Sequence record: OR352938.1
Strand: one strand, 5' to 3'
DNA from: Escherichia phage AV108
Length of the DNA: 64,000 nt
The notes under the pieces were generated by a model. It saw nothing but the letters and a program-made list of their open reading frames with translations, did not search any database and had not been told where the DNA came from. Positions within the stretch are counted from its first letter, which is position 1; each line of letters opens with the position of its first letter. Position numbers and translations under genes: made by a program. Shown in pieces: positions 40,786-60,907 of this stretch.

Positions 40786-40814
40786 AGTATAACGGGGATT
40801 TCTCCCCGCGTCAA
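40786..40814 (-). promoter_or_regulatory. sigma70-type promoter with hairpin filling the spacer
   Basis: TTGACG-(cggggagaaatccccgt, 17 nt)-TATACT; overlaps the 3' end of gene 47. Confidence 0.5.
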
Positions 40815-42218: not shown

Positions 42219-42219
42219 G

Positions 42220-42970: not shown

Positions 42971-43010
42971 TTCGCACCCTCGCTATTATTTAGGAAATAA
43001 CCCGTTCGGG

Positions 43011-44785: not shown

Positions 44786-44788
44786 GAA

Positions 44789-44947
44789 TTACTTAATGAT
44801 ACTTACTTTACCAGATCCGTGACAATGAGCGCAACACCCATCACCACGCAATCCTGTTCCGTTACAGTGTTTACACTTCTTCAAAGGTAAAGCCATTATA
44901 GCAAATAAAGCAATAATGAATACCGAAACTAAATTCTCAATAATCAT
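44789..44947 (-). CDS. small membrane-anchored protein with DnaJ-type zinc finger (not in ORF track)
   Basis: 52 aa: N-terminal TM helix then CKHCNGTG...CAHCHGSG (two CxxCxGxG repeats). Confidence 0.35.
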   Translation of the reverse strand: MIIENLVSVFIIALFAIMALPLKKCKHCNGTGLRGDGCCAHCHGSGKVSIIK

Positions 44948-45206
44948 AAATCGCCCTCAGTTCTTTATAGCCTCCAATGTGCTCGTTGTCAATGAATATC
45001 TGGGGGTATACAAACCGGAGGCTCTTTGAGTTCAGCCTCCCCGCCAGTTCTTCAATCATATCACGGTCGGGAATAATGTCAACCCCGACCTGCTTGAATA
45101 CTGGTTTAAGTGTATACGGAATACCCAGATCATCCAGTAGCTTCATTGCACTAATACAACCATAACAATGATAAGCCTCTTTCGGTATGCCGTATATCTC
45201 GATCAT
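44937..45206 (-). CDS. glutaredoxin-like protein (NrdH/NrdC family)
   Basis: CYGC active site; YPQIFIDNEHIGGY glutaredoxin signature. Confidence 0.7.
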   Translation of the reverse strand: MIEIYGIPKEAYHCYGCISAMKLLDDLGIPYTLKPVFKQVGVDIIPDRDMIEELAGRLNSKSLRFVYPQIFIDNEHIGGYKELRAIYDY

Positions 45207-45703
45207 TTCTCAGCCTTTAATCTTTCTAGTTCTTCTTCCAGTTCCTTGATCCGTTGGTCACGTTCAAAGTCACGCTGCAACTTAGTGGCAAATACTCGTT
45301 TAAACTGTTTGTAATCATCGATTTTAAACACTTCTTCTTCGCCATAGCGACGCACAGAAACTTCGTAGTTATTGAAGAATTGTTGCATCATTGCTTCGGA
45401 TGATAGTTCTGCTGATACCACTTTAAAATATTGATCTTCGGTCGGTGAAAACCAATTACAAGCATAAAGATAAACCTTTTCATTGTCTGGACACTGGTAA
45501 GCCTTACCATCGATTTCAATCACAGAAACATATTCAGGTATAGTCGATGAATCAATAGCTAAGACTTTAAACTGACGGTCCCCGATAAACTCGGAGATCA
45601 CACGATTCGCATCACTGGTTGCAAAGGCTTTACGCGCTTGTTCGCTTTTCCACTGATAGGTCATACCAACAACAAACATATTACCAACCTCGCTCTTTAC
45701 CAA
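45203..45703 (-). CDS. paralogous-family protein A
   Basis: Shares TYxWK...PFxV...IEIDG...WF...FFxEV core and charged C-terminal helix with family members. Confidence 0.5.
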   Translation of the reverse strand: MVKSEVGNMFVVGMTYQWKSEQARKAFATSDANRVISEFIGDRQFKVLAIDSSTIPEYVSVIEIDGKAYQCPDNEKVYLYACNWFSPTEDQYFKVVSAELSSEAMMQQFFNNYEVSVRRYGEEEVFKIDDYKQFKRVFATKLQRDFERDQRIKELEEELERLKAEK

Positions 45704-46214
45704 TCAAAAATTCAACTTCACGACGTTTAATATCTTCTTGAAGGTCTTTAATCTTCTGTCGATCTTGCATGATTTCATCCATCTTGTCAAGTGCTGCAAT
45801 GAAATCATCGAAACGTTCAAAGGTTTTACCTTCATTTGCTTCGCTAAATTTAACCATAGTCAGACCGTAACGACTACTAAACAGACGTTTCAACTGTCCA
45901 ACGATCTTAGAATCAGTGGTTATAACTTCCAATTCTTCTACTTCTTGAAAGAATTTTCTATCAGAATCAATAAACCAGCTAGTTCCTTTATGGTTGCTAT
46001 CTTCGGTTGCACTCATTAGAGTATGGTCTTTACCATCAATTTCAATTACATCAATTTGCCCACATGGACTAACCTTTTTAACAGTAAAAGGTCTATAATT
46101 TATTGCTCGTGCAATAACATAATTAAGGTTAGATACGTTTTCAGCATAATGGCAGAAGTCGGTCATAGCATTCGCATCTTTCCAGGTGTAAGTTTTACCA
46201 ATTTCCCATTTCAT
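45681..46214 (-). CDS. paralogous-family protein B
   Basis: MKWEIGKTYTWK...PFTVKKVSPCGQIDVIEIDGKDH; tandem family member. Confidence 0.5.
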   Translation of the reverse strand: MKWEIGKTYTWKDANAMTDFCHYAENVSNLNYVIARAINYRPFTVKKVSPCGQIDVIEIDGKDHTLMSATEDSNHKGTSWFIDSDRKFFQEVEELEVITTDSKIVGQLKRLFSSRYGLTMVKFSEANEGKTFERFDDFIAALDKMDEIMQDRQKIKDLQEDIKRREVEFLIGKERGW

Positions 46215-46226
46215 AATATATTCCCC

Positions 46227-46706
46227 TTAACCGATTTTATCAAGTTCGTTTAATGCTTTCTCTGCTTCCTGTATAGCTTGCACCCTTTCCGGCATTTTGT
46301 CAAGAAAATCTTTCAACTCTTCAAAACTGGAGATATGACGCAAGGCGTTAGCACCGATAGCCGCATGTGATTTGCATTCAAAGCGGATTTTATAATTATC
46401 CATCGCCAACTTGAGAAGATCAATTAATTTAGATTCTTCTGGAATAATAATTTCTTCAAATCTGCTACGGTCATGATCCAGAAACCAACAAGATAGACCT
46501 ACATCGGTTGAACTCATATAAGTTCCATCATGAAGATAAACAGACCGCACGTATCCTTTTTTCGCATCAACCGACGCAACTTTAAACGGTAATCGCAGAT
46601 ATTTCAAATAATCAACATCATACCATTTAAAAAATTGGTTTGCATCTTTTACATCTTTCCACGCATAGGTCTTACCAGCTTCCCATTTCATAATATCATC
46701 TCTCAT
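46227..46706 (-). CDS. paralogous-family protein C
   Basis: MKWEAGKTYAWK...PFKVASVD; tandem family member. Confidence 0.5.
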   Translation of the reverse strand: MRDDIMKWEAGKTYAWKDVKDANQFFKWYDVDYLKYLRLPFKVASVDAKKGYVRSVYLHDGTYMSSTDVGLSCWFLDHDRSRFEEIIIPEESKLIDLLKLAMDNYKIRFECKSHAAIGANALRHISSFEELKDFLDKMPERVQAIQEAEKALNELDKIG

Positions 46707-47232
46707 TTTTGATACGTGATTCTAATTGGATCATACGGTCGCGCGTTTGTTTGTATTCTCGGATAGCACCGATCCGGCTAGGCATACCATCCAGTACGCT
46801 CTTAATACCTTCTAGGGTAGTAATTTTGGCAATGCTATTATGTAACCCCATCTTATCGATCAACTGAATGTCGTAGGCTTCCATAAGCAGACCCAAGCGT
46901 TCTAAAGTTAGGTCTTCTTCTTTTTCTTCCGAATCTGGAATCTTAGGTTCAATAGTAACTTCGGTAAAGAAACGACGCTCACCCGACCAAAACCACACGC
47001 CGGAACAACCAATAGGGGATTCTTTTAACGTCATAGAGTCGAAATTACTACCAATAATAGTAATTTCTCTAACATCACCATCATCGTCAAGGTCTTCTAC
47101 CCTAAACGGGCGACCAGCCAACAGGTCAACAATACATCTGTTAATAGACGACGAAAATTTAGTCAGTTCGGCTTTCGACGCTTCACATTCAATCTTGTAA
47201 GTTTTACCAACTTCCCATTCCATAATAATCAC
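46696..47232 (-). CDS. paralogous-family protein D
   Basis: MEWEVGKTYKIE...PFRVEDLDDDGDVREITIIG; tandem family member. Confidence 0.5.
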   Translation of the reverse strand: MIIMEWEVGKTYKIECEASKAELTKFSSSINRCIVDLLAGRPFRVEDLDDDGDVREITIIGSNFDSMTLKESPIGCSGVWFWSGERRFFTEVTIEPKIPDSEEKEEDLTLERLGLLMEAYDIQLIDKMGLHNSIAKITTLEGIKSVLDGMPSRIGAIREYKQTRDRMIQLESRIKNER

Positions 47233-47233
47233 C

Positions 47234-47743
47234 TCAAATAATTTTCACTGGAATACTATTAACAATCTTGTATTGTACTTGATTGTCAGACCCCCGCCAC
47301 GGCTTCTTCGTTGGCATATCTTTAATATAACGCCCATCGATGAACATGTCAACTGATTCTACAATTTTTCTTTGCTCATCATTCAATTGGTCAAGGGTAT
47401 AACCAGACCATAGCCAAATATCTTTATTTGGCATCCATGATTTTACTTCATCGATGATCCGCTGTACACCCTTTAAATTGCGTTTATACAGTGGATCACC
47501 ACCTAAGAATGTTAGCCCCTGAATAAAATCAGGTCTAAGCAGATCCAGAATCAATCCCATTGTATCATCGGTGAATGGTTCCCCGTTCTTAGGATTGAGT
47601 ATACTGGAATTAAAGCAACCATCACATGCGTGTGAACATCCGGTAACGTAAAGGGAGACTCTCACTCCCTCACCGTTAACCATATCACAATCTTTAATAT
47701 CGGCATAGCGTAGTTTGCCGTATGTATCAGAACTCATATTCAA
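47234..47743 (-). CDS. nrdG: anaerobic ribonucleotide reductase activating protein (radical SAM)
   Basis: CxxxCxxC-type cluster GCSHACDGC near the N-terminus; size and position as T4 NrdG. Confidence 0.9.
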   Translation of the reverse strand: MNMSSDTYGKLRYADIKDCDMVNGEGVRVSLYVTGCSHACDGCFNSSILNPKNGEPFTDDTMGLILDLLRPDFIQGLTFLGGDPLYKRNLKGVQRIIDEVKSWMPNKDIWLWSGYTLDQLNDEQRKIVESVDMFIDGRYIKDMPTKKPWRGSDNQVQYKIVNSIPVKII

Positions 47744-47879
47744 TTACCCCGAACTCGTTTACAATCTGCGCTTTATAGTAACCACCGCGAGATGCTAATA
47801 GATAAGCTGGGCTTAGGTATTCGTATTCACGGATTTCTACTTGTGCGTTTTCAGTTTCCCAAATCAGTAAAGTCCACAT
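47727..47879 (-). CDS. hypothetical small protein
   Basis: About 50 aa from MWTLLIWETENAQ with AGGAG RBS; track ORF starts inside the promoter. Confidence 0.3.
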   Translation of the reverse strand: MWTLLIWETENAQVEIREYEYLSPAYLLASRGGYYKAQIVNEFGVIEYEF

Positions 47880-47921
47880 ATTTGATTCTCCTGTAAAGTT
47901 GTATCTCGTCTTGATGAATAT

Positions 47922-47950
47922 AGTATAGGGGATCTCGCGATCCCCGTCAA
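47922..47950 (-). promoter_or_regulatory. sigma70-type promoter with hairpin filling the spacer, two GATC sites
   Basis: TTGACG-(gggatcgcgagatcccc)-TATACT. Confidence 0.5.
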
Positions 47951-47954
47951 GCAT

Positions 47955-48503
47955 TTATTTTAAATTTTTTCGAATGTAGTCAGACCATTCCTTCCCTGTC
48001 AGTTCGGTCCCATTCTGGAAACTGAAATATTCATACGGCATCGAGTCAAGATAAAACAGGATCATACATCGCGCCATATAATACCAATCACGATTAAAGT
48101 AAACTACGTTATCACCAGTACCATCAACCCCTTTATCATAACCATCGCGGGTACGGGCAACCCATTGAATAGTATCATTTTTCTCACGGATAGTAACAGG
48201 TTCCCAATATCCAGCACATCCAGCATGACCACACGAACAAGTAAGGAAATATTGTCCTTTTGCTTTGTTGTCATCCCATTCACGATGGATCGGTTTGATT
48301 TCGTGAAACATTGCCAAACAATCATGATTATGCAACACCGGCTTACCATCAATCAATGCATGGAATGTATACAAACGACCCGTAGACAAATAGCTATCCT
48401 CACGCTCAACCAGTTCAATAGCAATCTTTTTAGCTCGTTCTTTGTGTCGTTGTGCTTTACGCTTACGGTTTAATGATTTCATATTCACCTCACACATTAT
48501 CAA
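47955..48503 (-). CDS. hypothetical protein (cysteine cluster)
   Basis: 182-aa ORF; CSCGHAGCAGYW cluster. Confidence 0.45.
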   Translation of the reverse strand: MIMCEVNMKSLNRKRKAQRHKERAKKIAIELVEREDSYLSTGRLYTFHALIDGKPVLHNHDCLAMFHEIKPIHREWDDNKAKGQYFLTCSCGHAGCAGYWEPVTIREKNDTIQWVARTRDGYDKGVDGTGDNVVYFNRDWYYMARCMILFYLDSMPYEYFSFQNGTELTGKEWSDYIRKNLK

Positions 48504-49039
48504 AGGTCGCGATATAGTACATTATGAAAATGAGAACTTGCATTACCAATATTGTAGATAATAAATTCTTCATCCGGCGCTTGCGCTACAAATTGAGTAT
48601 GAGCAACCGCCACAACCTTAAAAATACGATCCGTGATCTTGTGTTTAATTTCTGCCCCTACTTCCATAGGAACATATTCATTTGTTTCTGTTTCAGTCGC
48701 AAAACAGCCATCTTCTTCATAAGCACGAACAAATCTGTCGCAATCAGTACGCTTAACAAATTCAAGAGTATATAATTCTCGTGAATTGTCGGTATAGACC
48801 AATACAGAATTATTATGATAGCGAATCACATACAGGTTATTATCATCGTCAATTACGCAAAAGCTACGGATTCCTTCGCCTTGACTCCAGCAGATATTAA
48901 CCACCGTTCCTCTAATAAAAAAACTTTCCTTTAAATTAAAACTAGTCAATGTGCTAGCGTGCATTTTAACAACAACACCATCGCCAATTTCCAGTTTACG
49001 AATTTTAACTTCTTTGCTCAGTACACAAAACATCATCAT
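48500..49039 (-). CDS. hypothetical protein
   Basis: 179-aa ORF. Confidence 0.45.
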   Translation of the reverse strand: MMMFCVLSKEVKIRKLEIGDGVVVKMHASTLTSFNLKESFFIRGTVVNICWSQGEGIRSFCVIDDDNNLYVIRYHNNSVLVYTDNSRELYTLEFVKRTDCDRFVRAYEEDGCFATETETNEYVPMEVGAEIKHKITDRIFKVVAVAHTQFVAQAPDEEFIIYNIGNASSHFHNVLYRDL

Positions 49040-49068
49040 GTTGTCCTCTCGTTGTTTTCGATGTGAGC

Positions 49069-49096
49069 ATTATACATTAGCTAATCATGTTGTCAA
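49069..49096 (-). promoter_or_regulatory. sigma70-type early promoter
   Basis: TTGACA-N16-TATAAT immediately downstream of the nrdD terminator. Confidence 0.55.
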
Positions 49097-49102
49097 CACC
49101 CC

Positions 49103-49139
49103 AAAACGAAAAAGCCGACCCTTTCGGATCGGCTAAAAA
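49103..49139 (-). terminator. intrinsic terminator after nrdD
   Basis: agccgacc-cttt-cggatcggct hairpin flanked by A/T runs. Confidence 0.6.
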
Positions 49140-51002
49140 TTACATGTGCTTAACGCGGTTTACCATCTCGGAGTGTTTCCCGTGGTTAAATGGACGCAGA
49201 TCAACAGATCCAAGATATCCACTAACGCGACGGATAACATTCATCTTTTCCAGATTGTCGTTGCCGCAATCAGGACAAACAAAACCAGACTCGGTCGCTC
49301 TCATTTCCTTATTAGACCCGCATACATGACATACATCAGAAGGAGTATTAACACCGAAGTAGTGCAATTTATCCATTGCATAGTCTACTACAGTTTCAAG
49401 ACCTTTCAGGTTGTTTTTCATGTCTGGGAACTCAACATAAGAGATCATGCCACCGGACGCCAGCCAGTGATAATCTTTCTCAAAGTCAATTTTCTCAAAC
49501 GGTGTAACCTTCCGGTCTACGTCAAGGTGGAATGAGTTGGTGTACCAGTCTTTATCGGTAGCACCCTTAACAATACCAAATTGCTCTCTGTCCAGTCGAT
49601 TAAATCGATAGCAAAGGCTCTCGGCTGGCGTACCGTAAAGACTAAACCCAAGTCCGGTTTCGTCCTTCCATTTTTCAGTATAATGACGCAAGATCTTAAG
49701 AATATGTTTACCGTATCGCTGCGCATCTTCCGAATCAAACGGATGAACATCAAACAGGACGCTCAATACCTCATGTAAACCAATATATCCAAGAGAGATA
49801 CTAGCGCGACCATCTTTCAACACTTCCAAAATTTCATCGTTTTGATGAATACGGAAAAATGCACCTTCGGTATATAGTACAGGAGCAACATTGGCTTTAG
49901 CGCCTTTTAAAGCGTCTACGCGACTCATGAGCGCATCAAAACAAATAGGCATACGATTAGCTAGCTCTTGTTCGAATAGCTCAATTCTGCGCATTACAGA
50001 CGCTTTACCAGCACGACGCGCGGCAATAAGAGCAATACGCGGAAGATTCAGAGTCACAACACCCAAGTTATTACGTCCGTCTAATACTTCTTCGCCTTTC
50101 TCATTATGCCATACACCCAGGAAGCTACGACAACCCATCGGGCTAACCGGAACACTAGATCCAGTGATGCTACGGTTATTCTTCGCAGAGATATAATCAG
50201 GGTAAAGACGCTTACTAGAACATTCCAATGCAAGTTGCTTAATGTCGTAGTTCGGATCTTCCGGTTTAAGGTTTAATCCTTCTTCTAAGAACATCACCAG
50301 CTTAGGAAACACCGGAGTTATACCGTCTTTACCTAAACCTTTAGTTCGAACTTTCAGGATCGCTTTCTGAATCAGTTTTTCTTCCCAGCTAGTACCCATA
50401 CCAAAGGTTAAAGTCACAAAAGGCGTTTGACCGTTGGTGGAGAACAAAGTGTTGATTTCATATTCCAACGCTTGATACCCGTCTAGCGTTTCTTTTTCTG
50501 TCTTCTCTTGTGCATAGAGAGTATCAGCTTTGATTCCGTAGGTTTCGGCATCAGCAAGGTGTTTATGATATGTTTTCTCAACGTATGGCGCTAAAACCTG
50601 ATCGATGTTTGCAATTGTGGTCCCGCCATATTGATGACTTGCCACCTGTGCGATAATTTGAGCGGTTACAGCACAAGCAACGCCGATCGATTTCGGACTT
50701 TCGATTTGTGCGCTACCCAATTTAAAACCATTCTCTAACATGTCTTTGAGATTAACAAGACAGCAGTTAGTAAACGGCATAGCGGGTGCATAATCCATAT
50801 CATGATAATGAATATCACCGTCTACATGCGCTTTATAGATGTGCTCAGGTAACACGGTTTTAGCAATCTGTTTAGACACAGCGCCAGCAATCAGATCTCG
50901 ACGTGTCGGGAATGTTCGCGCGTCTTTGTTCGCGTTCTCTTTACTTACTTCGTTTTCTTTACCCGTTGCGATCTCTGTAATGTCTTTGATTAGTTTTTCC
51001 AT
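49140..51002 (-). CDS. nrdD: anaerobic ribonucleoside-triphosphate reductase
   Basis: 620 aa; C-terminal glycyl-radical motif RVSGYLG; zinc-ribbon cysteines CHVCG...CPDCG. Confidence 0.95.
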   Translation of the reverse strand: MEKLIKDITEIATGKENEVSKENANKDARTFPTRRDLIAGAVSKQIAKTVLPEHIYKAHVDGDIHYHDMDYAPAMPFTNCCLVNLKDMLENGFKLGSAQIESPKSIGVACAVTAQIIAQVASHQYGGTTIANIDQVLAPYVEKTYHKHLADAETYGIKADTLYAQEKTEKETLDGYQALEYEINTLFSTNGQTPFVTLTFGMGTSWEEKLIQKAILKVRTKGLGKDGITPVFPKLVMFLEEGLNLKPEDPNYDIKQLALECSSKRLYPDYISAKNNRSITGSSVPVSPMGCRSFLGVWHNEKGEEVLDGRNNLGVVTLNLPRIALIAARRAGKASVMRRIELFEQELANRMPICFDALMSRVDALKGAKANVAPVLYTEGAFFRIHQNDEILEVLKDGRASISLGYIGLHEVLSVLFDVHPFDSEDAQRYGKHILKILRHYTEKWKDETGLGFSLYGTPAESLCYRFNRLDREQFGIVKGATDKDWYTNSFHLDVDRKVTPFEKIDFEKDYHWLASGGMISYVEFPDMKNNLKGLETVVDYAMDKLHYFGVNTPSDVCHVCGSNKEMRATESGFVCPDCGNDNLEKMNVIRRVSGYLGSVDLRPFNHGKHSEMVNRVKHM

Positions 51003-51015
51003 TGTATCACCTATG

Positions 51016-51037
51016 AAAAAGCGGGATTTTCTCCCGC
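51016..51037 (-). terminator. intrinsic terminator
   Basis: gcggga-tttc-tcccgc hairpin followed by TTTTT on the leftward strand. Confidence 0.5.
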
Positions 51038-51048
51038 TCGTTGATAGT

Positions 51049-51543
51049 TTATTTTACCAGTTCTGCTAATTCTTTTTCTTTAGCTTCTAGTTCAGCTTTA
51101 AGCTGTTTAATCTCTTGTCGCTTCTTATTAGCGGCTTCTTGCTTACTATTTCGGATAACCTGATCTAGATACAACTCCCAATCCTGAATATTTTTGATAA
51201 TGTATCCGTCAACATTAATTGGTCGGAGATTCAGTACAGCTTCCAGTTTAGTCGCAAAAACTTTAATTGCTGGTGTGAAGTATTCATATTCGTTATCTTC
51301 AAACCAATAACCTAGACTTGCATTATCAATACGAAGACGAAGTTCAAGATCAAGGTCTTTATCTTCGGTGTAAAGATCTTTCACCTGACCCAGCGAACTA
51401 ACAACAACTTTAAAACGAATTTTATCTACACCACCAAACACATCAGTAAGTATATCAGCAATTGAGCTATTAGCGCAAGATTGGTCGCTGAATGCGTCAA
51501 GGTTTTCTTTAGTTACAGTATACCAAACATCTTGTACCCACAT
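51049..51543 (-). CDS. paralogous-family protein H
   Basis: WYTVTKENLDAF...IRFKVVVSS...WFEDNEYEYF with coiled-coil C-terminus; family member. Confidence 0.45.
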   Translation of the reverse strand: MWVQDVWYTVTKENLDAFSDQSCANSSIADILTDVFGGVDKIRFKVVVSSLGQVKDLYTEDKDLDLELRLRIDNASLGYWFEDNEYEYFTPAIKVFATKLEAVLNLRPINVDGYIIKNIQDWELYLDQVIRNSKQEAANKKRQEIKQLKAELEAKEKELAELVK

Positions 51544-51573
51544 AATATAATCCTCTCGTTGTTAAGTGGGAGT

Positions 51574-51601
51574 ATTATAGCATACTCCCTTCGCATGTCA
51601 A
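51574..51601 (-). promoter_or_regulatory. sigma70-type early promoter with stem-loop (PeSL-like)
   Basis: TTGACA-N16-TATAAT; hairpin gggagta...tactccc over the -10. Confidence 0.55.
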
Positions 51602-52776
51602 GCACTAACTTTTTTCTTTACTGCTTTCACCTTCTGGCGAATTGCTCGAATCTCTTCGATCTCTTTTTCAGTATCTTTAACAATTTCTTTGCGATTCTGA
51701 ATATCTTTATCGAGATTATCATCAAGTTTAGGCAGCATGTCAATCAAGAACTTTTTAAGGTCTTTCAGGTTGCGAATAACAGTACCTTCACCCATTACCG
51801 CCACGCCTACACCATCCGGCAGATCACCAAACAGTTTAACCAGTTCAGACAGATGATCATGATCTTCTAGTGCTTCTTCCGGTTCAGATGGCAGTTCAAC
51901 AAAGTAATAACGTTCATCATTGCTGATCAGGTGATACCAGCAAAGCCCAAAAGATTTAGGAGTATATTCTACACCACCAACTTCAACTGCGTCAACACTT
52001 CCGAAAGAATCTACTTTAGTTACCTTAAATCCATGTTCCAGCGTTTTAATAATTTCAATAACATGACTGGATACGGTTTCAGTATTAAACCAATGAGGCA
52101 AATTATGTGGATTTGGCTTGTATCGTTCGCCTACTTTAAATCTCTGACCACGCTCTTGCATACGGACATATTCAACTCGCGTGATTTCCGCGAAGTATTC
52201 AAATTCGCTACCGTCAAACAAGCAATTCCATTGATCACAAAAACGATCCGCCTTGACGGTTTCACCTTTCGCGGTGATCATGGTAGCTGATCCGTGCAAT
52301 TCTTCTTCAACTAAAAAGCCATATTCGACAAAATCAACAAGTTTCATGGCTTCTTTGTGCTCTGGGTCATGCTCTCCCCAGAATCGCTTAAATTCTTGCA
52401 AACCTTCTGGGGTAAACGAATAACATTTACCTTTTTCAAAGTAAGTCGGCATTGCATCCTCTTTCTTGTTCATCGCTTCGTATGCCTCTTTTGAGATACG
52501 TTTAAAGTATTTGCGCTCATTGTGCATAATCATAGTAGACCAATAATAAACGATATCCTCAGCGGAATAAACTACATCTCCAGCTTCAATAGTAATAACA
52601 TGACCGTGGTCATCTTTTTCTAATACTTTAAAGCCCTTTTCTACGATTTCAGCAACCCGAATATGACCACGGCGCGAAGCATCGGTCAGAATAATTGAAT
52701 AGCGAGAAAAGTCTAGAAACTCATCTTTACCGCCTTCACGGAATGCATAGTAATGACCTTCAAAGAATTTAGCCAT
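51598..52776 (-). CDS. paralogous-family protein E (three tandem domain copies)
   Basis: 392 aa; repeated GFKVLEK..., GFLVEEE..., GFKVTKVDSFGSVDAVEVGG modules; ERKYFKRIS shared with F. Confidence 0.5.
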   Translation of the reverse strand: MAKFFEGHYYAFREGGKDEFLDFSRYSIILTDASRRGHIRVAEIVEKGFKVLEKDDHGHVITIEAGDVVYSAEDIVYYWSTMIMHNERKYFKRISKEAYEAMNKKEDAMPTYFEKGKCYSFTPEGLQEFKRFWGEHDPEHKEAMKLVDFVEYGFLVEEELHGSATMITAKGETVKADRFCDQWNCLFDGSEFEYFAEITRVEYVRMQERGQRFKVGERYKPNPHNLPHWFNTETVSSHVIEIIKTLEHGFKVTKVDSFGSVDAVEVGGVEYTPKSFGLCWYHLISNDERYYFVELPSEPEEALEDHDHLSELVKLFGDLPDGVGVAVMGEGTVIRNLKDLKKFLIDMLPKLDDNLDKDIQNRKEIVKDTEKEIEEIRAIRQKVKAVKKKVSA

Positions 52777-52808
52777 AATATAATCCTCTCGTTGTTTAGA
52801 TGGGAGTA

Positions 52809-52837
52809 TCTTACTACTCCCGTTTCATCATGTCAAG
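52809..52837 (-). promoter_or_regulatory. sigma70-type early promoter with stem-loop (PeSL-like)
   Basis: TTGACA-N17-TAAGAT; hairpin gggagta-tcttac-tactccc identical in type to 9844-9863. Confidence 0.55.
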
Positions 52838-53417
52838 CGTTAAATGACTTTTGGATCTCTTTCAGTTCAGCTACTTTATCGGCGCTGAATTTAGCGTAGG
52901 TATCATGTCGAATAATTTCACTTTCAAGAAAGGTTTCCAGCCGAGATCTATTTTCAATAAGGAACTCTTTCAGGTCTTCCGCGTTCTTGATAAAGATTTT
53001 ATTGTCAGTAATGTCATCTTCAATCGCAAAGGAGATAGAGCGAACTTTACCAAACAAGTTAATCAGATCTTCCAGAGATTCTTCTTTCTTAACTGGTTTC
53101 ATTTCTTCAAACTGCTTTTTAGTGATGCGTTTAAAGTATTTGCGCTCGCTTGCATCAATCATGATTGATGCACCCTCATAATCATGAGTTTCTACCAAAT
53201 ACACTTTACCCATAACATTAACCGTAAGAACTTTAAAGCCCCTGTGAAGCACACCATACAGGAACTTGTTATGTTGTGGGTAGCGTTTAACAAATTCCTC
53301 TGCGGACTTAGCATTACGGAAAGTGTAATAACGACCTCGTTCAAAAACAGCATCATTTGAAGACTTAGCCGGATACAATTTATACGTTTTCTGTACCATA
53401 ATATAATCCTCTATCAT
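52833..53417 (-). CDS. paralogous-family protein F
   Basis: RYYTFRNAKSAEEF...GFKVLTVNVMGKVYLVE...ERKYFKRITK. Confidence 0.5.
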   Translation of the reverse strand: MIEDYIMVQKTYKLYPAKSSNDAVFERGRYYTFRNAKSAEEFVKRYPQHNKFLYGVLHRGFKVLTVNVMGKVYLVETHDYEGASIMIDASERKYFKRITKKQFEEMKPVKKEESLEDLINLFGKVRSISFAIEDDITDNKIFIKNAEDLKEFLIENRSRLETFLESEIIRHDTYAKFSADKVAELKEIQKSFNA

Positions 53418-53425
53418 TTCACTAA

Positions 53426-53686
53426 TTAAACAGCACGGAACAGAATGCGCTCACACGGAAGCAGCATAAATTCCCAACGCGGGTCAAAGTCTTTAGCGGT
53501 GTATGTTTTCCCATCAACCGCTATTTCACTTACATAACCAACAGGTGACACTTTAAGAACAGTAAACCCGTTCTTGATGACTTCGTAGGTATCTTTCACC
53601 CCTTCGTATTCATCATCTAAGAAGTCTTTATGTGCTTGCTCAGATTTAAAAACATAGGCCACACCGGATTTAAACATCTTACGCAT
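53426..53686 (-). CDS. paralogous-family protein G (single short domain)
   Basis: VAYVFKSEQAHKDF...GFTVLKVSPVGYVSEIAVDGKTY closely parallels member A. Confidence 0.45.
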   Translation of the reverse strand: MRKMFKSGVAYVFKSEQAHKDFLDDEYEGVKDTYEVIKNGFTVLKVSPVGYVSEIAVDGKTYTAKDFDPRWEFMLLPCERILFRAV

Positions 53687-53717
53687 TGTTGATTCTCCTT
53701 CTTGATTAGATGGGAAT

Positions 53718-53748
53718 ATTTTACTACTCCCATTTCATGTTTGTCAAC
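53718..53748 (-). promoter_or_regulatory. sigma70-type early promoter with stem-loop
   Basis: TTGACA-N18-TAAAAT; hairpin gggaata...tactccc. Confidence 0.45.
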
Positions 53749-53750
53749 TA

Positions 53751-54239
53751 CTATCTTAATCTTTGTATGAATTGTTTCTTATACTTCTTCGTGATTTCTT
53801 CTCGTGTATCAGCGTCGCAGTAATCGAAACCTTCTGCGTCCATAATATCAACCATCTCCGCGCGTGTCAAGCGTGAAAATCGTTTTACTTTATCAACAGC
53901 ATATTGAGGATGTAAATGATTGTTGGTGTAGTCTCCTTTGATGTAATTAACATAGTTTGTAGCCCAAACAACGAAATCAGCACCTAAAGCACCAACACCA
54001 AACCGTTTAAAGTCTCCGGTCAACGATCCTTCTAGGCGGTTGCAACACGAATGAAGCAATCCCCTTACGCGGCCTTGCCCTTTCCCATCTAGATCATGAT
54101 CATGGTCAAGATGGTTTTTGCTCATATCCTCAAAAAGTGGCAATTGACAAAGGGGGCAAATGCCCCCCTGTTTTTCGAATAGTTCTTGTTTGTACTCTTT
54201 AGCACTCTTAGCAGTCAGTAACATAAATTCACCCTCCAA
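53751..54239 (-). CDS. 49: endonuclease VII (Holliday junction resolvase)
   Basis: Match to T4 gp49 (CPLCQ...NHLDHDHDLDGKGQGRVRGLL..CN..EG). Confidence 0.85.
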   Translation of the reverse strand: MEGEFMLLTAKSAKEYKQELFEKQGGICPLCQLPLFEDMSKNHLDHDHDLDGKGQGRVRGLLHSCCNRLEGSLTGDFKRFGVGALGADFVVWATNYVNYIKGDYTNNHLHPQYAVDKVKRFSRLTRAEMVDIMDAEGFDYCDADTREEITKKYKKQFIQRLR

Positions 54240-54248
54240 AGAAGGTAT

Positions 54249-54542
54249 TTAACCATTAATCTTGTTTTTGACTACAAAGGATCTGAACTCATCAAAACCA
54301 CCTATATAATCACCATTATAGAAAATCTGCGGCATGGTGGCAATAACTTCTACCCCTGCGCGATCCTGAATGTCGGCAATGATAGAATCAATCTTTACCG
54401 GACGACCGTTTTCGTCTACACCATCATTAACCGGAATGTAGATGTAAGGGATCTTACGCGATTCACAAAGGCGCTTTGCATTCTGGCAATACTTACAGTT
54501 GTAACCTTCAAAACCAAAAATTTCTACCATATTATACCTCAA
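54249..54542 (-). CDS. nrdC: thioredoxin/glutaredoxin NrdC
   Basis: CKYCQNAKRL active site and MPQIFYNGDYIGGFDEFR match T4 NrdC. Confidence 0.8.
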   Translation of the reverse strand: MRYNMVEIFGFEGYNCKYCQNAKRLCESRKIPYIYIPVNDGVDENGRPVKIDSIIADIQDRAGVEVIATMPQIFYNGDYIGGFDEFRSFVVKNKING

Positions 54543-55351
54543 TCTACGTTAGTTACATAAACTTCTTGCGTATCAGAAGACTTGCCACCTGAACGATCTA
54601 GGCAATAGGTCTTATTCAACAGGACGCAGTTTAGATCATTCCGCTTGATAAAGTCAAGAAGATGATCATTTACCTTTCCCTTATGATGCGTGACATTACT
54701 GATACCAAACTGAAAACCACGCGCCATAATAGATTCTACCCACTGATAGAATTTAATCTCTTCCTCGTCACTCCAGAACTTATTATATTCCGCAGAAGTG
54801 ATAAGATACGGCGGGTCCAAATAAACGAAATCACCTGGCAAGATCTCGATCTCGTCATATCGTCCAGAAGTAAAAATGATTCGACCGTCTTTGTTTTCTT
54901 CCTTAAAATTCAGGACACGCTCTACCGCGTTTTCGTTAAAAGTCCGGCGACCAAAATTAGCATTAAATTCTCCCTTTCGGTTATGGCGGTTAATGTTGCT
55001 AAAACTGTGCTGAATCAACACAAACAGCGATAGCGGATCTGGATTCTCGTTATACTTCTTACGAAATGTCATGTAAGCGTCTTTATCTTCGCGAGACAAA
55101 TCATTTTCGGCAATAATCCGCTTGATCGTAGAAACCGGATCAGGACACTCGTCAATCGCTTTGTACGCGTCAATTAAGCGGTGATCATAGTCATTAGCCA
55201 GCACATCCCCTTCGACGTACAGAGACACGCTCAAGCCTCCACAAAAGGCATCAACAAAGCGGTTATAGTGCTTAGGGAAATACTTACTAACACCTGGCAA
55301 TAGCTTTTCCTTATTGCCAGTATAGGGAATTAAACCTAATGCTTTCTTCAT
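54539..55351 (-). CDS. dam: DNA adenine methyltransferase (GATC)
   Basis: Match to T4 Dam: NRFVDAFCGGLSVSL (SAM binding), DFVYLDPPYLITSAEYNKFWS (DPPY motif). Confidence 0.9.
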   Translation of the reverse strand: MKKALGLIPYTGNKEKLLPGVSKYFPKHYNRFVDAFCGGLSVSLYVEGDVLANDYDHRLIDAYKAIDECPDPVSTIKRIIAENDLSREDKDAYMTFRKKYNENPDPLSLFVLIQHSFSNINRHNRKGEFNANFGRRTFNENAVERVLNFKEENKDGRIIFTSGRYDEIEILPGDFVYLDPPYLITSAEYNKFWSDEEEIKFYQWVESIMARGFQFGISNVTHHKGKVNDHLLDFIKRNDLNCVLLNKTYCLDRSGGKSSDTQEVYVTNVD

Positions 55352-55782
55352 TATCCCTTCCTCAAATAAGTTCGCTCAATCTCTACCAGTTCGAAAAATT
55401 CCTGCCAATCACACGGAAAATTGCAGTTTCCGAAATGATCCTCTTTGTAAAGTTCTTTACCGGATGGCAGCTTAATATCTGTTACGCTGTAGTATCCGCA
55501 ACAATCGCAATCACCCTCTGTATATTCTGTTTTAGTCGGAATATCCAACATTGCCAGATACAAAGGTACATCGTCTTGCTCAAAGTTCATGTAACCTTCA
55601 TGGTCAAACGAGACAAAGTTATCATCGCCACCGAAAGGGATATAATGGTCATAATCTGTTACAGGTTGACCGTGTAATTCCCATTCTACAATTTTAACAT
55701 TACCGCTAAACTTGATACCCATAATTTCAACAAGAAAATGAGTATCGTCAATGTAAATCTTACTAGGGGTTGGATAAACCAT
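55351..55782 (-). CDS. hypothetical protein
   Basis: 143-aa ORF; cysteine pair DCDCCG. Confidence 0.4.
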   Translation of the reverse strand: MVYPTPSKIYIDDTHFLVEIMGIKFSGNVKIVEWELHGQPVTDYDHYIPFGGDDNFVSFDHEGYMNFEQDDVPLYLAMLDIPTKTEYTEGDCDCCGYYSVTDIKLPSGKELYKEDHFGNCNFPCDWQEFFELVEIERTYLRKG

Positions 55783-55792
55783 TATATAATCC

Positions 55793-56089
55793 TCATATCT
55801 CAGAGAATAGAATCTCTGTTAGCTTAACTGACTGCTCTCTGAATGTTAGCGTATACTCGAAAGGAAAGTCAACACCCAACTTCAAAAGAGAATAGCCTAC
55901 AGCCTCTTTATGCTTATCGGTTAGAGCAATCCTAACCAATTCCCGTTGAATCTCTTTAGGCGGTGAATGGATAGTAACACGGGTATCATGCAATGTCCAG
56001 TCACCATTTCGAATTAAGATTAACGGTTTATCATCATTGAAGATCACCGACCCCTTTCCGGTAGGTGAGTGTTTTAGACTAATCATCAA
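55793..56089 (-). CDS. hypothetical protein
   Basis: 98-aa ORF. Confidence 0.4.
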   Translation of the reverse strand: MMISLKHSPTGKGSVIFNDDKPLILIRNGDWTLHDTRVTIHSPPKEIQRELVRIALTDKHKEAVGYSLLKLGVDFPFEYTLTFREQSVKLTEILFSEI

Positions 56090-56321
56090 ATTCTAAGAAA
56101 TATTCTGGAACGATATACCCGTTAAAGTCATTACACTTATAAAAATGTGGTGCATTCAATGCTGGATGAGCATTAGTAAAGAGTTTACCCTCTAGAAACA
56201 GAATGTAATTAATAGGTCTAATACCGACAGAATCAGGGTCTAAACCTTTTTCTTTCAGTTCAGCCAGCGTTAAAACTCGTCCAGATCGTAACTTAGCCAT
56301 GATTTGCCCCCAATTCATCAA
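56079..56321 (-). CDS. hypothetical protein
   Basis: 80-aa ORF. Confidence 0.35.
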   Translation of the reverse strand: MMNWGQIMAKLRSGRVLTLAELKEKGLDPDSVGIRPINYILFLEGKLFTNAHPALNAPHFYKCNDFNGYIVPEYFLEFDD

Positions 56322-56586
56322 GATTGTGTCGCAGCATTTCAGAGTATTTTTCTACTTCCTTAATCTTAGTGTGGATATCCACGATCTCATCCACACTATC
56401 AGAAATTTTAATGGCATTCGCGAGCGTGCTTTTACCCGCTTTCACAGTCTCTTTCATTTCAACCAACATGTCCGCGTGTTTCAATAGTAATTCTTCACGT
56501 CGAACATAAGCGGCGGTCAAAGCCTCATCAGCGATTTCTAAAGCATTTTCAGCGACACCAACAACCATTTTACGAGTAGACAGCAT
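56293..56586 (-). CDS. hypothetical protein
   Basis: 97-aa helical ORF. Confidence 0.4.
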   Translation of the reverse strand: MLSTRKMVVGVAENALEIADEALTAAYVRREELLLKHADMLVEMKETVKAGKSTLANAIKISDSVDEIVDIHTKIKEVEKYSEMLRHNLDELGANHG

Positions 56587-56600
56587 AAATTCACCTCACA

Positions 56601-56909
56601 TTATTTCACGTTAACGCCGTCATCAATCCAGCCGACGCTATTGGGTTTAACAGTTTTACCATAGGATGCATACTTAATCAAGCATGGTTTAACATCATTA
56701 TCAAATCTTCCTAAACGTACTCCCAAATCAGGAATATCCATGTATGCGGCTTTATATCCCCATGTACCGTATTCAGAATCAATCTCAACCGGACGGCCTT
56801 TAAAAGCATACACTACACCGTGACGGTCAACGATAACATAGCAATAACCAGCCGGAAGATACACAGTTTCGCCGTAAACTTTAACTGGAGTAGCAGAAGA
56901 GATAAACAT
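56601..56909 (-). CDS. hypothetical protein
   Basis: About 102 aa from MFISSATPVKVYG with GAGGAT RBS; track ORF begins inside the promoter. Confidence 0.4.
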   Translation of the reverse strand: MFISSATPVKVYGETVYLPAGYCYVIVDRHGVVYAFKGRPVEIDSEYGTWGYKAAYMDIPDLGVRLGRFDNDVKPCLIKYASYGKTVKPNSVGWIDDGVNVK

Positions 56910-56935
56910 AATATAATCCTCACATCGTTCATTTG

Positions 56936-56972
56936 ATGCGGTCATTATATGATAACCGCATTTTCATGTCAA
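56936..56972 (-). promoter_or_regulatory. sigma70-type early promoter with stem-loop
   Basis: TTGACA-N17-TATAAT; inverted repeat tgcggt...accgca around the -10. Confidence 0.5.
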
Positions 56973-56979
56973 CAGTTTT

Positions 56980-57336
56980 TTAAAAATCTTCTTCCGGTTT
57001 ATATCGACCGTCATCGACTGGTTTTGGACTGAATCCTTTATGCGTGCGCGGCTTCGCTTCCGGTTTACCAGCAATCATCAAACCAAAACATTTCAGCCCC
57101 TTATAACACATAACAATATCAACCACGGTCCACGTTATAGGCCATACGATTGCAGCAATACAAAATGCTCCTGTATCGACCTCTTTGGTGTCCTTGTCGA
57201 ATCTGGCGTACAAGCAGAATACTAGATACGAGATCATTGCACCAGTAGTCCAGATATAAAGCACATTAACAATATCTTGTGTTGTCACATTATCCTCCTT
57301 ACATGTCTTGCAGTGCATAAAAGCATTTTTCTTCAT
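56980..57336 (-). CDS. hypothetical membrane protein
   Basis: About 118 aa with two hydrophobic helices. Confidence 0.4.
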   Translation of the reverse strand: MKKNAFMHCKTCKEDNVTTQDIVNVLYIWTTGAMISYLVFCLYARFDKDTKEVDTGAFCIAAIVWPITWTVVDIVMCYKGLKCFGLMIAGKPEAKPRTHKGFSPKPVDDGRYKPEEDF

Positions 57337-57577
57337 AGTCATAGAAAATGTCAAAGTATGCCTTTTCCACATACTCGCCATTAATCCAAGCGGCAGTAAC
57401 AATCAGAGTGGTCCAGTTAGATCCGCTCTCAACGGTAAAGGTTTTAATACCCAGCTTCGCTGCCAAGTCGAACGCAAACCGGACGCAACCACGACAGGAA
57501 GTGATATTGGAAGTTTTGATTTTAAAGCCACCGCGAGTTTTAGAAATTTCTACTTTAGCGAAAGACAGGTTGCTCAT
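57299..57577 (-). CDS. hypothetical protein
   Basis: About 92 aa from MSNLSFAKVE with AAGGAG RBS. Confidence 0.4.
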   Translation of the reverse strand: MSNLSFAKVEISKTRGGFKIKTSNITSCRGCVRFAFDLAAKLGIKTFTVESGSNWTTLIVTAAWINGEYVEKAYFDIFYDYEEKCFYALQDM

Positions 57578-57619
57578 TTTGATTCTCCTTAAAAAAGTGT
57601 GTTTCGTTTTGATGTGTGT

Positions 57620-57648
57620 AGTATAGGGGATCACCGATCCCCTGTCAA
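57620..57648 (-). promoter_or_regulatory. sigma70-type promoter with hairpin filling the spacer, two GATC sites
   Basis: TTGACA-(ggggatcggtgatcccc, 17 nt)-TATACT. Confidence 0.55.
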
Positions 57649-57656
57649 CAACTTTT

Positions 57657-57920
57657 TTATGATTTTAGTGAATTAACCACTACATCAAAATGATGTACAG
57701 AGCACACCTTACGAAACACATACTCATCATGTTTAGGGGTCGCCCCCAACCTCTCTATTTCGCTCGCCATAACGACAAACTGTTTATCTGGTGCATATGC
57801 CTTGTGTGCTTCAACAACGCACGGAAAACGCGTTTTAGAGAGTTCTGGATAGTTTTCTGAATCCAGAAGGACGATGAATACCCTATTACATTGATTGTAG
57901 AATCCGGTTTTTGATTTCAT
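57657..57920 (-). CDS. hypothetical protein
   Basis: About 87 aa; start uncertain, overlaps the upstream ORF. Confidence 0.3.
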   Translation of the reverse strand: MKSKTGFYNQCNRVFIVLLDSENYPELSKTRFPCVVEAHKAYAPDKQFVVMASEIERLGATPKHDEYVFRKVCSVHHFDVVVNSLKS

Positions 57921-58227
57921 CAAGTTTTCTTCTCTGTGCAATTCGTGCAATCTTCCTTTCATGATTTCGTTGGTTCCTGTCTTCATAGTCTACCCACTCA
58001 ACAAGATCTTTACCTAACTCGAAAGCCCATTCTCGATCCTGCTTTACGTTTTGTAGGTATGAGCTTTCCGACACTCGACGAAGTGATGTTGTCGTAACAA
58101 GAATGATCTCAGGAATGGTCGGATGTTCTTTTCCATATACAATAGGACGCGAGTCACTATCAATACCTTGTAAGAAGGTGTATCCTGAATCACTTAGAAT
58201 CATATACTTTTTCATTTCACACATCAC
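57886..58227 (-). CDS. hypothetical protein
   Basis: 113-aa ORF, basic C-terminus. Confidence 0.4.
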   Translation of the reverse strand: MMCEMKKYMILSDSGYTFLQGIDSDSRPIVYGKEHPTIPEIILVTTTSLRRVSESSYLQNVKQDREWAFELGKDLVEWVDYEDRNQRNHERKIARIAQRRKLDEIKNRILQSM

Positions 58228-58481
58228 AGTTTCCTCAACCAGTTATTCAAGCGAGTAAACCATGATGCTTTTCGTGCTTCTTTTACTTTATGTGCACGTA
58301 AACCACTGAAACACCATTCATAATCATCACTGAAACATGATTCAACAGGAACACCCGCATTTCGTAGTTCTCTGGTCTTTATCATGAATCCTTGACATAA
58401 GGGGCGACCTTCAACAATGATAGGAAGTTTAACTTTTTCCATGAAAGTATACCCAGCACGGTCAATAATTTCAATTTTCAT
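58224..58481 (-). CDS. hypothetical protein
   Basis: 85-aa ORF. Confidence 0.4.
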   Translation of the reverse strand: MKIEIIDRAGYTFMEKVKLPIIVEGRPLCQGFMIKTRELRNAGVPVESCFSDDYEWCFSGLRAHKVKEARKASWFTRLNNWLRKL

Positions 58482-58725
58482 TTACATTATCTCCATAGAT
58501 CTTTCCAGCAATATCAATTTCACCAGCGCGAACATCTAGGATAAGATGCGGTAGGTGTATGCAGTTTTCCCACCCTACGCGCTTCATTTCTTCTACGGTA
58601 ACGTAAGCCCACCCGTTCGCTGTAATAAAGTCTACTTCAACCTTGAGAGGAAAGCAAGACTTTTCTATGTCTTCGAATCCGACAATATGTTTTGTTGTTG
58701 AATATGGAATATATCCGGTGATCAT
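58471..58725 (-). CDS. hypothetical protein
   Basis: 84-aa ORF. Confidence 0.4.
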   Translation of the reverse strand: MITGYIPYSTTKHIVGFEDIEKSCFPLKVEVDFITANGWAYVTVEEMKRVGWENCIHLPHLILDVRAGEIDIAGKIYGDNVNEN

Positions 58726-59156
58726 TTTGTGATCTCCTTATACTCAACACACCATAAGCGGGTAGCCCATGATAAACGCTCATAACGCTGGCAGAAATCG
58801 GACCATAGATATTGTGCACCGTTCGGCATAGTTGAAATATGCGTTTTCTCTCCAACTTTCACGAAAGAAGTATTCGATTTTGTGATCTCGACCGGAGTAT
58901 ATCCGAAAGCGGGTTCCAAGCCAACATCTGAACTAAATGCCAATTTAACAGAATTTGTTTTTCTGACCGCTGTCCGGTTTCCTTCTGGGTATAGCACAGC
59001 AGGTTTAGCGCCTAAGCGGATAAACTCAGTATTTTTAATGAACAGAATATCATGATAACCGTCATATTCTGACACTTCCATAGTAACAGGAAAATCGACA
59101 TGTGCTAAACCTGGTAGATCTCGCATATCATGAAAGGTCGCCATCAACTTTTTCAT
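58722..59156 (-). CDS. hypothetical protein
   Basis: About 144 aa from MKKLMATF. Confidence 0.4.
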   Translation of the reverse strand: MKKLMATFHDMRDLPGLAHVDFPVTMEVSEYDGYHDILFIKNTEFIRLGAKPAVLYPEGNRTAVRKTNSVKLAFSSDVGLEPAFGYTPVEITKSNTSFVKVGEKTHISTMPNGAQYLWSDFCQRYERLSWATRLWCVEYKEITK

Positions 59157-60821: not shown

Positions 60822-60862
60822 TTTGATTCTCCTAGAAAGTGTATCTCGTTTCGATGGGTGTA

Positions 60863-60890
60863 TTATGCAATAACACCGGATCGCTGTCAA
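60863..60890 (-). promoter_or_regulatory. sigma70-type early promoter
   Basis: TTGACA-N16-CATAAT; ggtgt/acacc inverted repeat around the -10; GATC in spacer. Confidence 0.5.
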
Positions 60891-60907
60891 CACTTTCTAA
60901 GAAATTT

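Follow-up and report, generated by a model that had tools for sequence, protein, structure and literature searches.

The window, a 64,000-nucleotide stretch of Escherichia phage AV108 (sequence record OR352938.1), matches 58 Krischvirus genomes, RB49, phi1, JSE, and ECD7 among them, at 94-98% identity. Three short gaps between co-directional genes each carry, on the minus strand, a sigma-70-type promoter whose spacer is a GC-rich inverted repeat. In the gene numbering of phi1 and RB49, the gaps are ORF071/ORF070 (site 1, 57620..57648), ORF054/ORF053 (site 2, 47922..47950), and gene 47/ORF038 (site 3, 40786..40814). A sequence-only reading of this DNA had described three leftward TTGAC(A/G)-hairpin-TATACT motifs, and these were found base for base, on the minus strand, at all three positions. 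The paired GATC sites that it reported inside the stem at two of the three are present at sites 1 and 2, site 3 being without GATC. Its assignment of a phage-encoded Dam to 54539-55351 was likewise correct: the ORF (54539..55351, minus strand) encodes a D12-class N6-adenine (GATC) DNA methyltransferase of 270 aa (PF02086, E = 1.6e-30), and its orthologue is annotated as dam in RB49, phi1, JSE, and ECD7.

At site 1, the minus-strand hexamers TTGACA (-35, 57648-57643) and TATACT (-10, 57625-57620) enclose the spacer GGGGATCGGTGATCCCC (57642-57626). Its hairpin consists of GGGGATC (57642-57636), the loop GGT (57635-57633), and GATCCCC (57632-57626), with the GATC pair at 57639-57636 and 57632-57629. 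The full cassette (57575..57665, minus strand) comprises the stop codon TAA of the upstream ORF (57659-57657), an A-rich UP-like tract, the promoter with its hairpin, the conserved leader CATCAAAACGAAAC, an SD sequence AGGAG (57589-57585), and the ATG (57577-57575) of a 92-aa ORFan. Site 2, on the same strand, has the hexamers TTGACG (47950-47945) and TATACT (47927-47922) around the spacer GGGATCGCGAGATCCCC (47944-47928). Its hairpin is formed by GGGGATC (47945-47939), the loop GCGA (47938-47935), and GATCCCC (47934-47928), the last G of the -35 hexamer being part of the 7-bp stem; the GATC pair lies at 47942-47939 and 47934-47931. The flanks include a TAA stop (47957-47955), an SD (47892-47888), and the ATG (47879-47877) of a 50-aa DUF7170 protein. 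Site 3, also on the minus strand, has TTGACG (40814-40809) and TATACT (40791-40786) around the spacer CGGGGAGAAATCCCCGT (40808-40792), with a hairpin of CGGGGA (40808-40803), loop GAAA (40802-40799), and TCCCCG (40798-40793). The stop codon TAG of gene 47 (40817-40815), which encodes the Metallophos protein gp47, adjoins the -35 hexamer; an SD GGAGG (40771-40767) and the ATG (40761-40759) of an 83-aa ORFan follow.

The three sites are built alike. Upstream stops (TAA, TAA, and TAG at sites 1, 2, and 3) end 8, 4, and 0 nt before the -35 hexamer, the flanks are A-rich, the hexamers match the sigma-70 consensus at 10-11 of 12 positions, the spacers measure 17 nt, and an SD (AGGAG or GGAGG) with an ATG comes 25-43 nt past the -10 hexamer. 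The downstream ORFs of 92, 50, and 83 aa have no Pfam match or a DUF match only.

Exact matches to TTGAC-N18-TATACT in the window are sites 1, 2, and 3 only; when one mismatch was allowed, the number rose to 16 for an expectation of 1.33, and every one of them was on the minus strand. A census of about 70 sigma-70-like sites of that strand found spacers folding at -10 kcal/mol or below at these three alone, the next best reaching -3.8. Folding this stable occurs in 27 of the 127,966 17-mers of the window (2.1e-4), a rate that, multiplied by some 70 promoter-like sites, gives about 0.015 hairpin spacers expected against three observed. The earlier description of the spacers as GC-rich inverted repeats was borne out. 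Folded alone, the spacers reach -10.0 to -10.9 kcal/mol, and the hairpin is the dominant structure in 71-nt RNA folds of the sites (z-scores of -2.4 to -3.0). Rfam searches at the gathering threshold gave zero family matches in 40000-59000.

Elements of this kind were described by Arbiol, Comeau, Kutateladze, Adamia, and Krisch, who found in RB49 and phi1 about 52 repeated motifs per genome and named them PeSLs (promoter-early stem-loops); according to the available text, a PeSL combines a consensus sigma-70 early promoter with a Gn-loop-Cn stem-loop, most often located between the -35 and -10 hexamers (Arbiol et al., 2010; PMC2839356). The authors proposed that the stem-loop serves to terminate or attenuate incoming upstream transcription, and that modular shuffling and the formation of mini-circles proceed through the cassettes. 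The RB49/phi1 type was later given as GN-loop-CN with TTGACA-N17-TATAAT, again in the available text (Comeau, Arbiol, and Krisch, 2014; PMC4122927). Sites 1-3 are, with a probability of roughly 80%, PeSLs of the published spacer-hairpin subclass, that is, repeated 60-90-bp regulatory cassettes of RB49-type T4-like phages that unite a promoter, an RNA stem-loop, and a recombination repeat. The hairpin-spacer feature is already known, and the three sites in effect belong to an already described set of elements; the copies 071/070, 054/053, and 47/038 are unnamed in the main text of both papers, in the portions available. A hairpin census of the window also recovered the other published PeSL class, in which the -10 hexamer lies in the loop: GGGAGTAG-TAAGAT-ACTCCC is found at 52821-52802, and similar elements at 51589, 17719, 10143, and 9863.

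The designation of the sites as leftward early-type sigma-70 promoters agrees with published predictions. The RB49 orthologues of sites 1 and 2 appear in the early-promoter list of that phage as Pe:43045 (score 38.3) and Pe:33349 (score 16.2), respectively, site 3 being absent from the list (Nolan et al., 2006). It agrees as well with the very high activity of a paralogue in E. coli. No transcriptome or TSS paper on Krischvirus was found in the literature. Early 5' ends of RB49 were reportedly mapped by Desplats in 2002.

Over 72 nt, the cassettes of sites 1 and 2 (site-2 copy 47950-47881) share 80.6% identity, and they have the stem, the -10 hexamer, and the leader in common. Another paralogue of the site-1 cassette, with 76.5% identity, is located at 60896-60819; its promoter, TTGACA-GCGATCCGGTGTTATTG-CATAAT (60862..60890, minus strand), has no hairpin and is followed by a leader and SD as in site 1. 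This copy shows that the consensus hexamers were kept though the stem-loop was lost. Intergenic cassettes were extracted from the hyperplastic region of phi1 and RB49, and more copies occur in these phages at 187/186, 192-193/191, 206/205, 210/209, and 211-212/210; further ones are present in ECD7-like contigs, and the hairpin of site 3 recurs at nrdA/233 of phi1.

Two of these positions connect the sites with published experiments. PeSL206/205 of RB49 reads TTGACA-GGGGATCGGTGATCCCC-TATAAT, its spacer being identical to that of site 1, and PeSL206/205 of phi1 reads TTGACA-GGGGATCACCGATCCCC-TATACT (ACC loop), with a spacer equal to the site-1 allele of phage JK32. The sole wild-type clone of PeSL206/205 yielded about 13,000 Miller units in an E. 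coli reporter, and nearly all other clones of PeSL206/205 and PeSL193/192 carried mutations in the -35 or -10 hexamers, suggesting a toxically high strength (PMC2839356, available text). PeSL211/210 of RB49, TTGACA-GGGGATCACGTATCCCC-TATACT, has a leader almost identical to that of site 1, and its hairpin is the site-1 allele of phi1, JSE, ECD7, UPWr_E1, and Brandy. According to the available text of the same paper, the PeSL211/210 stem-loop decreased lacZ expression about as much as the rrnB T1 terminator, a result that concerns one stem-loop in a plasmid context (PMC2839356). Promoter and attenuator activities were thus demonstrated at paralogous positions with the same or near-identical cores, and sites 1-3 would be expected to have both.

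Orthologous positions were compared in 12 fetched Krischvirus genomes and two IMG/VR contigs, and the hairpin-spacer sites were conserved in 12 of the 12 related genomes examined. The arms GGGGAT/ATCCCC of site 1 do not vary among the 14 genomes, and the central 5 nt occur in six forms (CGGTG, CACCG, CGCCG, CGGCG, CACGT, and CGCGT). Site 2 is invariant except in KMB43 (centre CTCGCG for CGCGAG) and phi1 (-35 TTGACT), and site 3 shows zero variation among the compared genomes. A constrained stem with a free loop is the pattern that would be expected of a selected hairpin. No special meaning is attached to the C of the -10 hexamer, since TATACT and TATAAT alternate among orthologues.

Stem variation also occurs among the paralogues, where a change of A to G creates a sense-strand G·T wobble, as in GGGGGTC...GATCCCC of RB49 187/186 and phi1 193/191. 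An automated count of G·T against A·C was confounded by the chance complementarity between the end of TTGACA and the start of TATACT (ACA...TAT, C·A), which inflates A·C, and the stems were therefore read manually. Internal G·T pairs were found in four hairpins, along with one candidate internal A·C (phi1 alt/183), which RNAfold resolved as a bulged helix. The loops include the GNRA tetraloops GAAA, GCGA, and GGGA. Because G·T is tolerated in RNA but becomes A·C in the other arm of a cruciform, and given the GNRA loops, these variants, small in number, favour a probable function as sense-strand RNA.

Palindrome centres also occur as exact reverse-complement pairs: CGGTG/CACCG at 071/070, 206/205, and 187/186, CGCCG/CGGCG at 071/070, CGCGAG/CTCGCG at 054/053, and CTTG/CAAG in a non-Krischvirus lineage. 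Such a loop flip changes three or four bases at once to the exact complement, and hairpin-mediated template switching or minute inversion is the best explanation for it. Exact inversion of the loop therefore implies that a DNA hairpin forms at least occasionally, probably in replication. Its repeated occurrence between orthologues is a new detail beyond the PeSL papers. Footprints of recombination were observed at site 2, where upstream homology stops at the AT-rich/-35 edge of the cassette in JSE, Makalu001, SSG23, and KMB43, and where the sequence after the -10 hexamer is replaced in Makalu001 and SSG23 by that of site 1, ACACACATCAA for ATATTCATCAA.

These elements may work at three levels. 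As duplex DNA, each site would be a sigma-70 promoter close to consensus and preceded by an A-rich tract, used by the host RNA polymerase right after infection for expression of the downstream small ORFan. In transcripts that start at upstream promoters and run through the site, these 17 nt would form a G4...C4 hairpin (about -10 to -12 kcal/mol) directly behind the upstream stop codon, and this hairpin may attenuate or terminate read-through, or stabilise the 3' end, so that neighbouring units are insulated. As a dispersed repeat, the cassette would provide a substrate for homologous recombination and gene conversion and thus shuffle the ORFans. RNA polymerase hardly reads the sequence of a promoter spacer, so this segment can host a hairpin at no length cost. 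The promoter role was shown for PeSL206/205, whose spacer is that of site 1 or differs from it by the flipped loop, and the attenuator role for the PeSL211/210 stem-loop of RB49; both presumably apply to sites 1-3. The GATC pairs would then represent the inherited stem GGGGATC/GATCCCC of one cassette subfamily and no separate regulatory device.

Published and comparative evidence fits an RNA-level stem-loop on read-through transcripts better than it fits gating by DNA structure. Canonical intrinsic terminators were considered at sites 1-3 and rejected for want of a U-tract: no T-run follows the hairpins, whose tail is TATACTA, and a simple scan for intrinsic terminators called none of the three. 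ORFs flanking the three gaps have no entry in the supplementary files of Nolan et al. (2006), the TransTerm terminator list included.

Alternatively, a dimeric phage protein could bind the G4...C4 repeat and serve in recombination or, as a repressor, block access to the promoter; a palindrome-binding protein for recombination was in fact a speculation of Arbiol et al. (PMC2839356, available text). Strong conservation of the stem in paralogues and orthologues around a free centre would suit such a protein, as would the placement between the -35 and -10 hexamers, a classical operator position. However, half-site spacing ranges from 2 to 5 nt (the copies have loops of 3 or 4 nt, and the other lineage has CTTG), the stems differ by subfamily (GGGGATC, CGGGGA, GGGGAG, and GGGAGTA), and the position relative to the hexamers changes with the PeSL class. 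The G·T variants, moreover, preserve pairing and not sequence, and no candidate protein was identified. This explanation is considered unlikely.

Another proposal, quite unlikely on the present evidence, is a cruciform switch, in which supercoiling would extrude the spacer palindrome, collapse the spacing between -35 and -10, and turn the promoter off, so that output would track the superhelical state. The palindromes are perfect and GC-rich with loops of 3-4 nt, and the exact reverse-complement replacement of loops among orthologues is a signature of an occasional intrastrand hairpin in DNA, but replication can yield such flips without any regulatory role. Arms of 6-7 bp are at the lower limit for cruciform extrusion. 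Sense-strand G·T variants of the stem would become A·C mismatches on the other cruciform arm. In most PeSLs, furthermore, the stem-loop covers the -10 hexamer or lies upstream of the -35 or downstream, positions in which a spacing switch would fail. The cloned PeSL is described in the available text as very strong and constitutive on a supercoiled plasmid (PMC2839356). A precedent for such a switch exists in the promoter of Horwitz and Loeb (1988; cited in PMC6060812, available text). The supercoil-extruded hairpins of the phage N4 early promoters are another.

Also quite improbable is that the GGGGATC...GATCCCC subfamily, about 7-8 of the approximately 52 PeSLs per genome, forms a functionally distinct subset that works at the DNA level. 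Its spacer palindrome would form hairpins in vivo, as the repeated exact loop inversions suggest, and through the paired Dam sites the activity of the promoter, or recombination, would be tied to replication or to the methylation state. A further proposal is gating by Dam (or SeqA), in which the methylation state of the spacer GATCs (full before replication, hemimethylated just after) would switch early promoters through SeqA or through altered contacts with RNA polymerase; this is very unlikely, and the suggestion of the sequence-only reading that methylation could gate these promoters found no support. Several circumstances favour it. The phage carries its own dam gene, and about 7-8 PeSLs per Krischvirus genome have GGGGATC...GATCCCC in the spacer. 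The same stem is found in an unrelated uncultivated phage, as TTTACA-AGGGGATCTTGATCCCC-TATAAT. RB49-type phages have no MotA and no middle mode, and the shut-off of their early promoters is less well understood (PMC1524935). The available text of the PeSL papers makes no mention of GATC or Dam (PMC2839356; PMC4122927). Finally, in about 8 of some 11 spacer-hairpin PeSLs the G4/C4 stem is extended by ATC/GAT, which would be a large excess for independent copies. The extended stems can be explained, rather than by selection for Dam sites, by inheritance of a successful cassette, whose leaders are homologous too, a distinction that sequence alone cannot make.

Comparative evidence nevertheless weighs against methylation gating. 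GATC sites are present in only about 15% of PeSLs, and the same architecture exists without them at site 3, nrdA/233, and 191/190. Natural alleles lose GATC while pairing is kept: in 6 of the 12 fetched genomes (7 of 14 with the IMG/VR contigs), the right arm of site 1 has TATC in place of GATC, a form also seen in RB49 211/210. In RB49 187/186 and phi1 193/191, it is the left arm that has lost the site, to a GGTC whose G·T pair preserves the stem. GATC frequencies are those of the background: the approximately 70 promoter spacers include 6 with GATC, where the window frequency predicts 5.7, and the 373 GATCs of the window, against 359 Markov-expected, are neither depleted nor enriched. Since GATC is palindromic, its presence in either arm of a perfect inverted repeat entails a second copy in the other; this forced second copy and the paralogy of sites 1 and 2 reduce GATC at two of three sites to about one independent event. 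More generally, the GATC-bearing copies are all paralogues and do not count as independent evidence. A GGGGAT/ATCCCC stem without the C/G extension occurs at 17719 (GGGGATAT...ATATCCCC), and GGGGATC...GATCCCC is also found in ordinary terminator-like hairpins of unrelated viral contigs. SeqA prefers GATC sites about one helical turn or more apart. Here the distance is 7-8 bp, and the sites are confined to spacer positions 3-7 and 11-14, outside the hexamers or any known regulator site. Known promoters that respond to Dam methylation carry GATC within a -10 or -35 hexamer or where a regulator binds. E. coli DH5alpha is a dam+ strain. The reporter clone was fully active in it, according to the available text of the 2010 paper. 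No published test of PeSL activity against dam status or hemimethylation was found. The GATC content of one PeSL subfamily is a new question, and on the comparative evidence it looks incidental.

As separate observations, a BamHI-type restriction site in the stems was considered and rejected, as they contain no GGATCC, and the uncultivated lineage IMGVR_3300033696 gave no megablast match, with one ORF showing weak protein similarity to Vibrio phages. A chance origin of the palindromic spacers, for which nothing speaks apart from the small number of sites, has a negligible probability and was rejected on the excess of three observed over about 0.015 expected, the conservation in all 12 related genomes, and the several paralogues per genome.

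As PeSLs, the three short intergenic gaps can be annotated as an early promoter, a stem-loop insulator, and a recombination linker, and this labelling would explain the local operon structure as well as the mosaic breakpoints in relatives. The analysis finds again a published regulatory and recombination cassette and adds little to it, its value being a clean annotation. In the loop flips among close relatives, a lytic phage genome would preserve a compact natural record of hairpin-mediated template switching or of minute inversion. If Dam gating were true, it would mean a replication-coupled shut-off of early promoters in T4-type phages devoid of the MotA middle mode; a DNA-level or Dam role restricted to the subset would, if true, imply replication-linked silencing of some early promoters in a MotA-less T4-type phage.

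Comparison with known systems helps to delimit these elements. Promoters sensitive to Dam in E. coli, such as IS10 pIN, dnaA P2, P1 cre, Mu mom (OxyR), and pap (Lrp), resemble sites 1 and 2 in having GATC in the promoter region in the presence of Dam. In those promoters, GATC overlaps a hexamer or a regulator site and is conserved, whereas at sites 1 and 2 it lies in the spacer stem, is dispensable in natural alleles, and is not enriched.

The early promoters of phage N4 contain hairpins with stems of 5-7 bp that are extruded by supercoiling; they are read by the virion RNA polymerase, a single-subunit phage enzyme, and not by the sigma-70 holoenzyme. With these and with the Horwitz-Loeb promoter (Science 241:703; in PMC6060812, available text), PeSLs share a short inverted repeat in the core promoter that could extrude under supercoiling. 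The Horwitz-Loeb promoter is, according to that text, an artificially selected construct. PeSLs differ from both systems in the constitutive strength of the cloned element and in stem variants indicative of RNA-type pairing.

The likeness to Rho-independent terminators lies in the GC-rich stem of 6-7 bp with a loop of 3-4 nt right past a stop codon, and in a paralogous stem-loop that terminated about like rrnB T1 in a reporter (PMC2839356, available text). Sites 1-3 differ from such terminators in having the tail UAUACUA instead of a U-tract.

With respect to the PeSLs of RB49 and phi1, no structural difference was found, the GATC/Dam aspect and the loop inversion being the points absent from the available text of the papers. 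The likeness extends to the genus, the TTGACA-N17-TATAAT-type promoter, the AT-rich upstream tract with a stop codon, the Gn-loop-Cn between -35 and -10, the SD and ATG of a small ORFan on the 3' side, the repetition in the genome, and the association with homology breakpoints. Compared with the tested PeSLs 206/205 and 211/210, the spacers of the sites are equal or differ in the loop only.

The 17-nt spacer hairpins of site 1 (57648-57620, minus strand) and site 2 (47950-47922, minus strand) belong to promoter-early stem-loop (PeSL) cassettes, in which a sigma-70 early promoter and a stem-loop precede the SD and ATG of a small ORF. The hairpin centres (57635-57633 and 47938-47935, both minus strand) were compared with orthologues in L001-L012 and with paralogues in L013, L014 and L015-L031. 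Between close phage relatives the centre has repeatedly been swapped for its exact reverse complement, the arms remaining constant. The four pairs found, CGGTG/CACCG, CGCCG/CGGCG, CGCGAG/CTCGCG and CTTG/CAAG, imply a minimum of four independent events. These changes look like the product of template switching mediated by the hairpin, or of minute inversion; the PeSL papers make no mention of loop inversion.

The cassettes also appear to exchange sequence with one another. In Makalu001 and SSG23, the site-2 cassette (compared with 47922-47950 of the window) has the site-1 sequence after the -10, ACACACATCAA, a sign that dispersed PeSL copies undergo gene conversion with one another. At site 2 in JSE, Makalu001, SSG23 and KMB43, other sequence takes the place of the upstream gene's 3' end as far as the edge of the cassette. 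A paralogue of the site-1 cassette at 60862-60896 has the same SD and the same leader (the conserved stretch between -10 and SD), but in its spacer, GCGATCCGGTGTTATTG, the left arm survives only as a remnant and the hairpin is gone.

In the depositors' automated annotation of Ec_Makalu_001 (MN894885.1; L006 18455-18501), the region orthologous to the site-1 hairpin is a plus-strand "terminator". On that strand a T-run, complementary to the A-rich UP tract upstream of the -35, comes 9 nt past the hairpin.

The conserved SD, AGGAGAATCAAA (57589-57585, 47892-47888 and paralogous cassettes), contains GGAG, the motif at which T4-type RegB endoribonuclease cleaves early mRNAs, and thus the PeSL cassette may also carry an mRNA-inactivation site.

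PeSL-like cassettes are arrayed very densely in the uncultivated phage contigs IMGVR_UViG_3300033696_000007 and _000004 (L015, L016, L027), for which megablast against GenBank phages gave no match. Their leaders, TACCAAATCAAGACAACAACGG, are nearly identical; the dominant class has its -35 enclosed by a GGGGTT...AACCCC stem, and a minority class reads TTTACA-AGGGGATCTTGATCCCC-TATAAT. PeSL-type cassettes thus reach beyond Krischvirus. L015 (9460 nt, GC 34.5%) has 116 GATC sites against about 30 expected from base composition, an approximately fourfold excess.

A second PeSL class occurs in the window at 52836-52802, 51601-51568, 17732-17698, 10156-10120 and 9878-9844. Here the -10 hexamer is enclosed by a GGGAGTA.../...TACTCCC or GGGGATAT/ATATCCCC stem and so lies in the hairpin loop, and these elements correspond to the published PeSL class whose stem-loop overlaps the -10.
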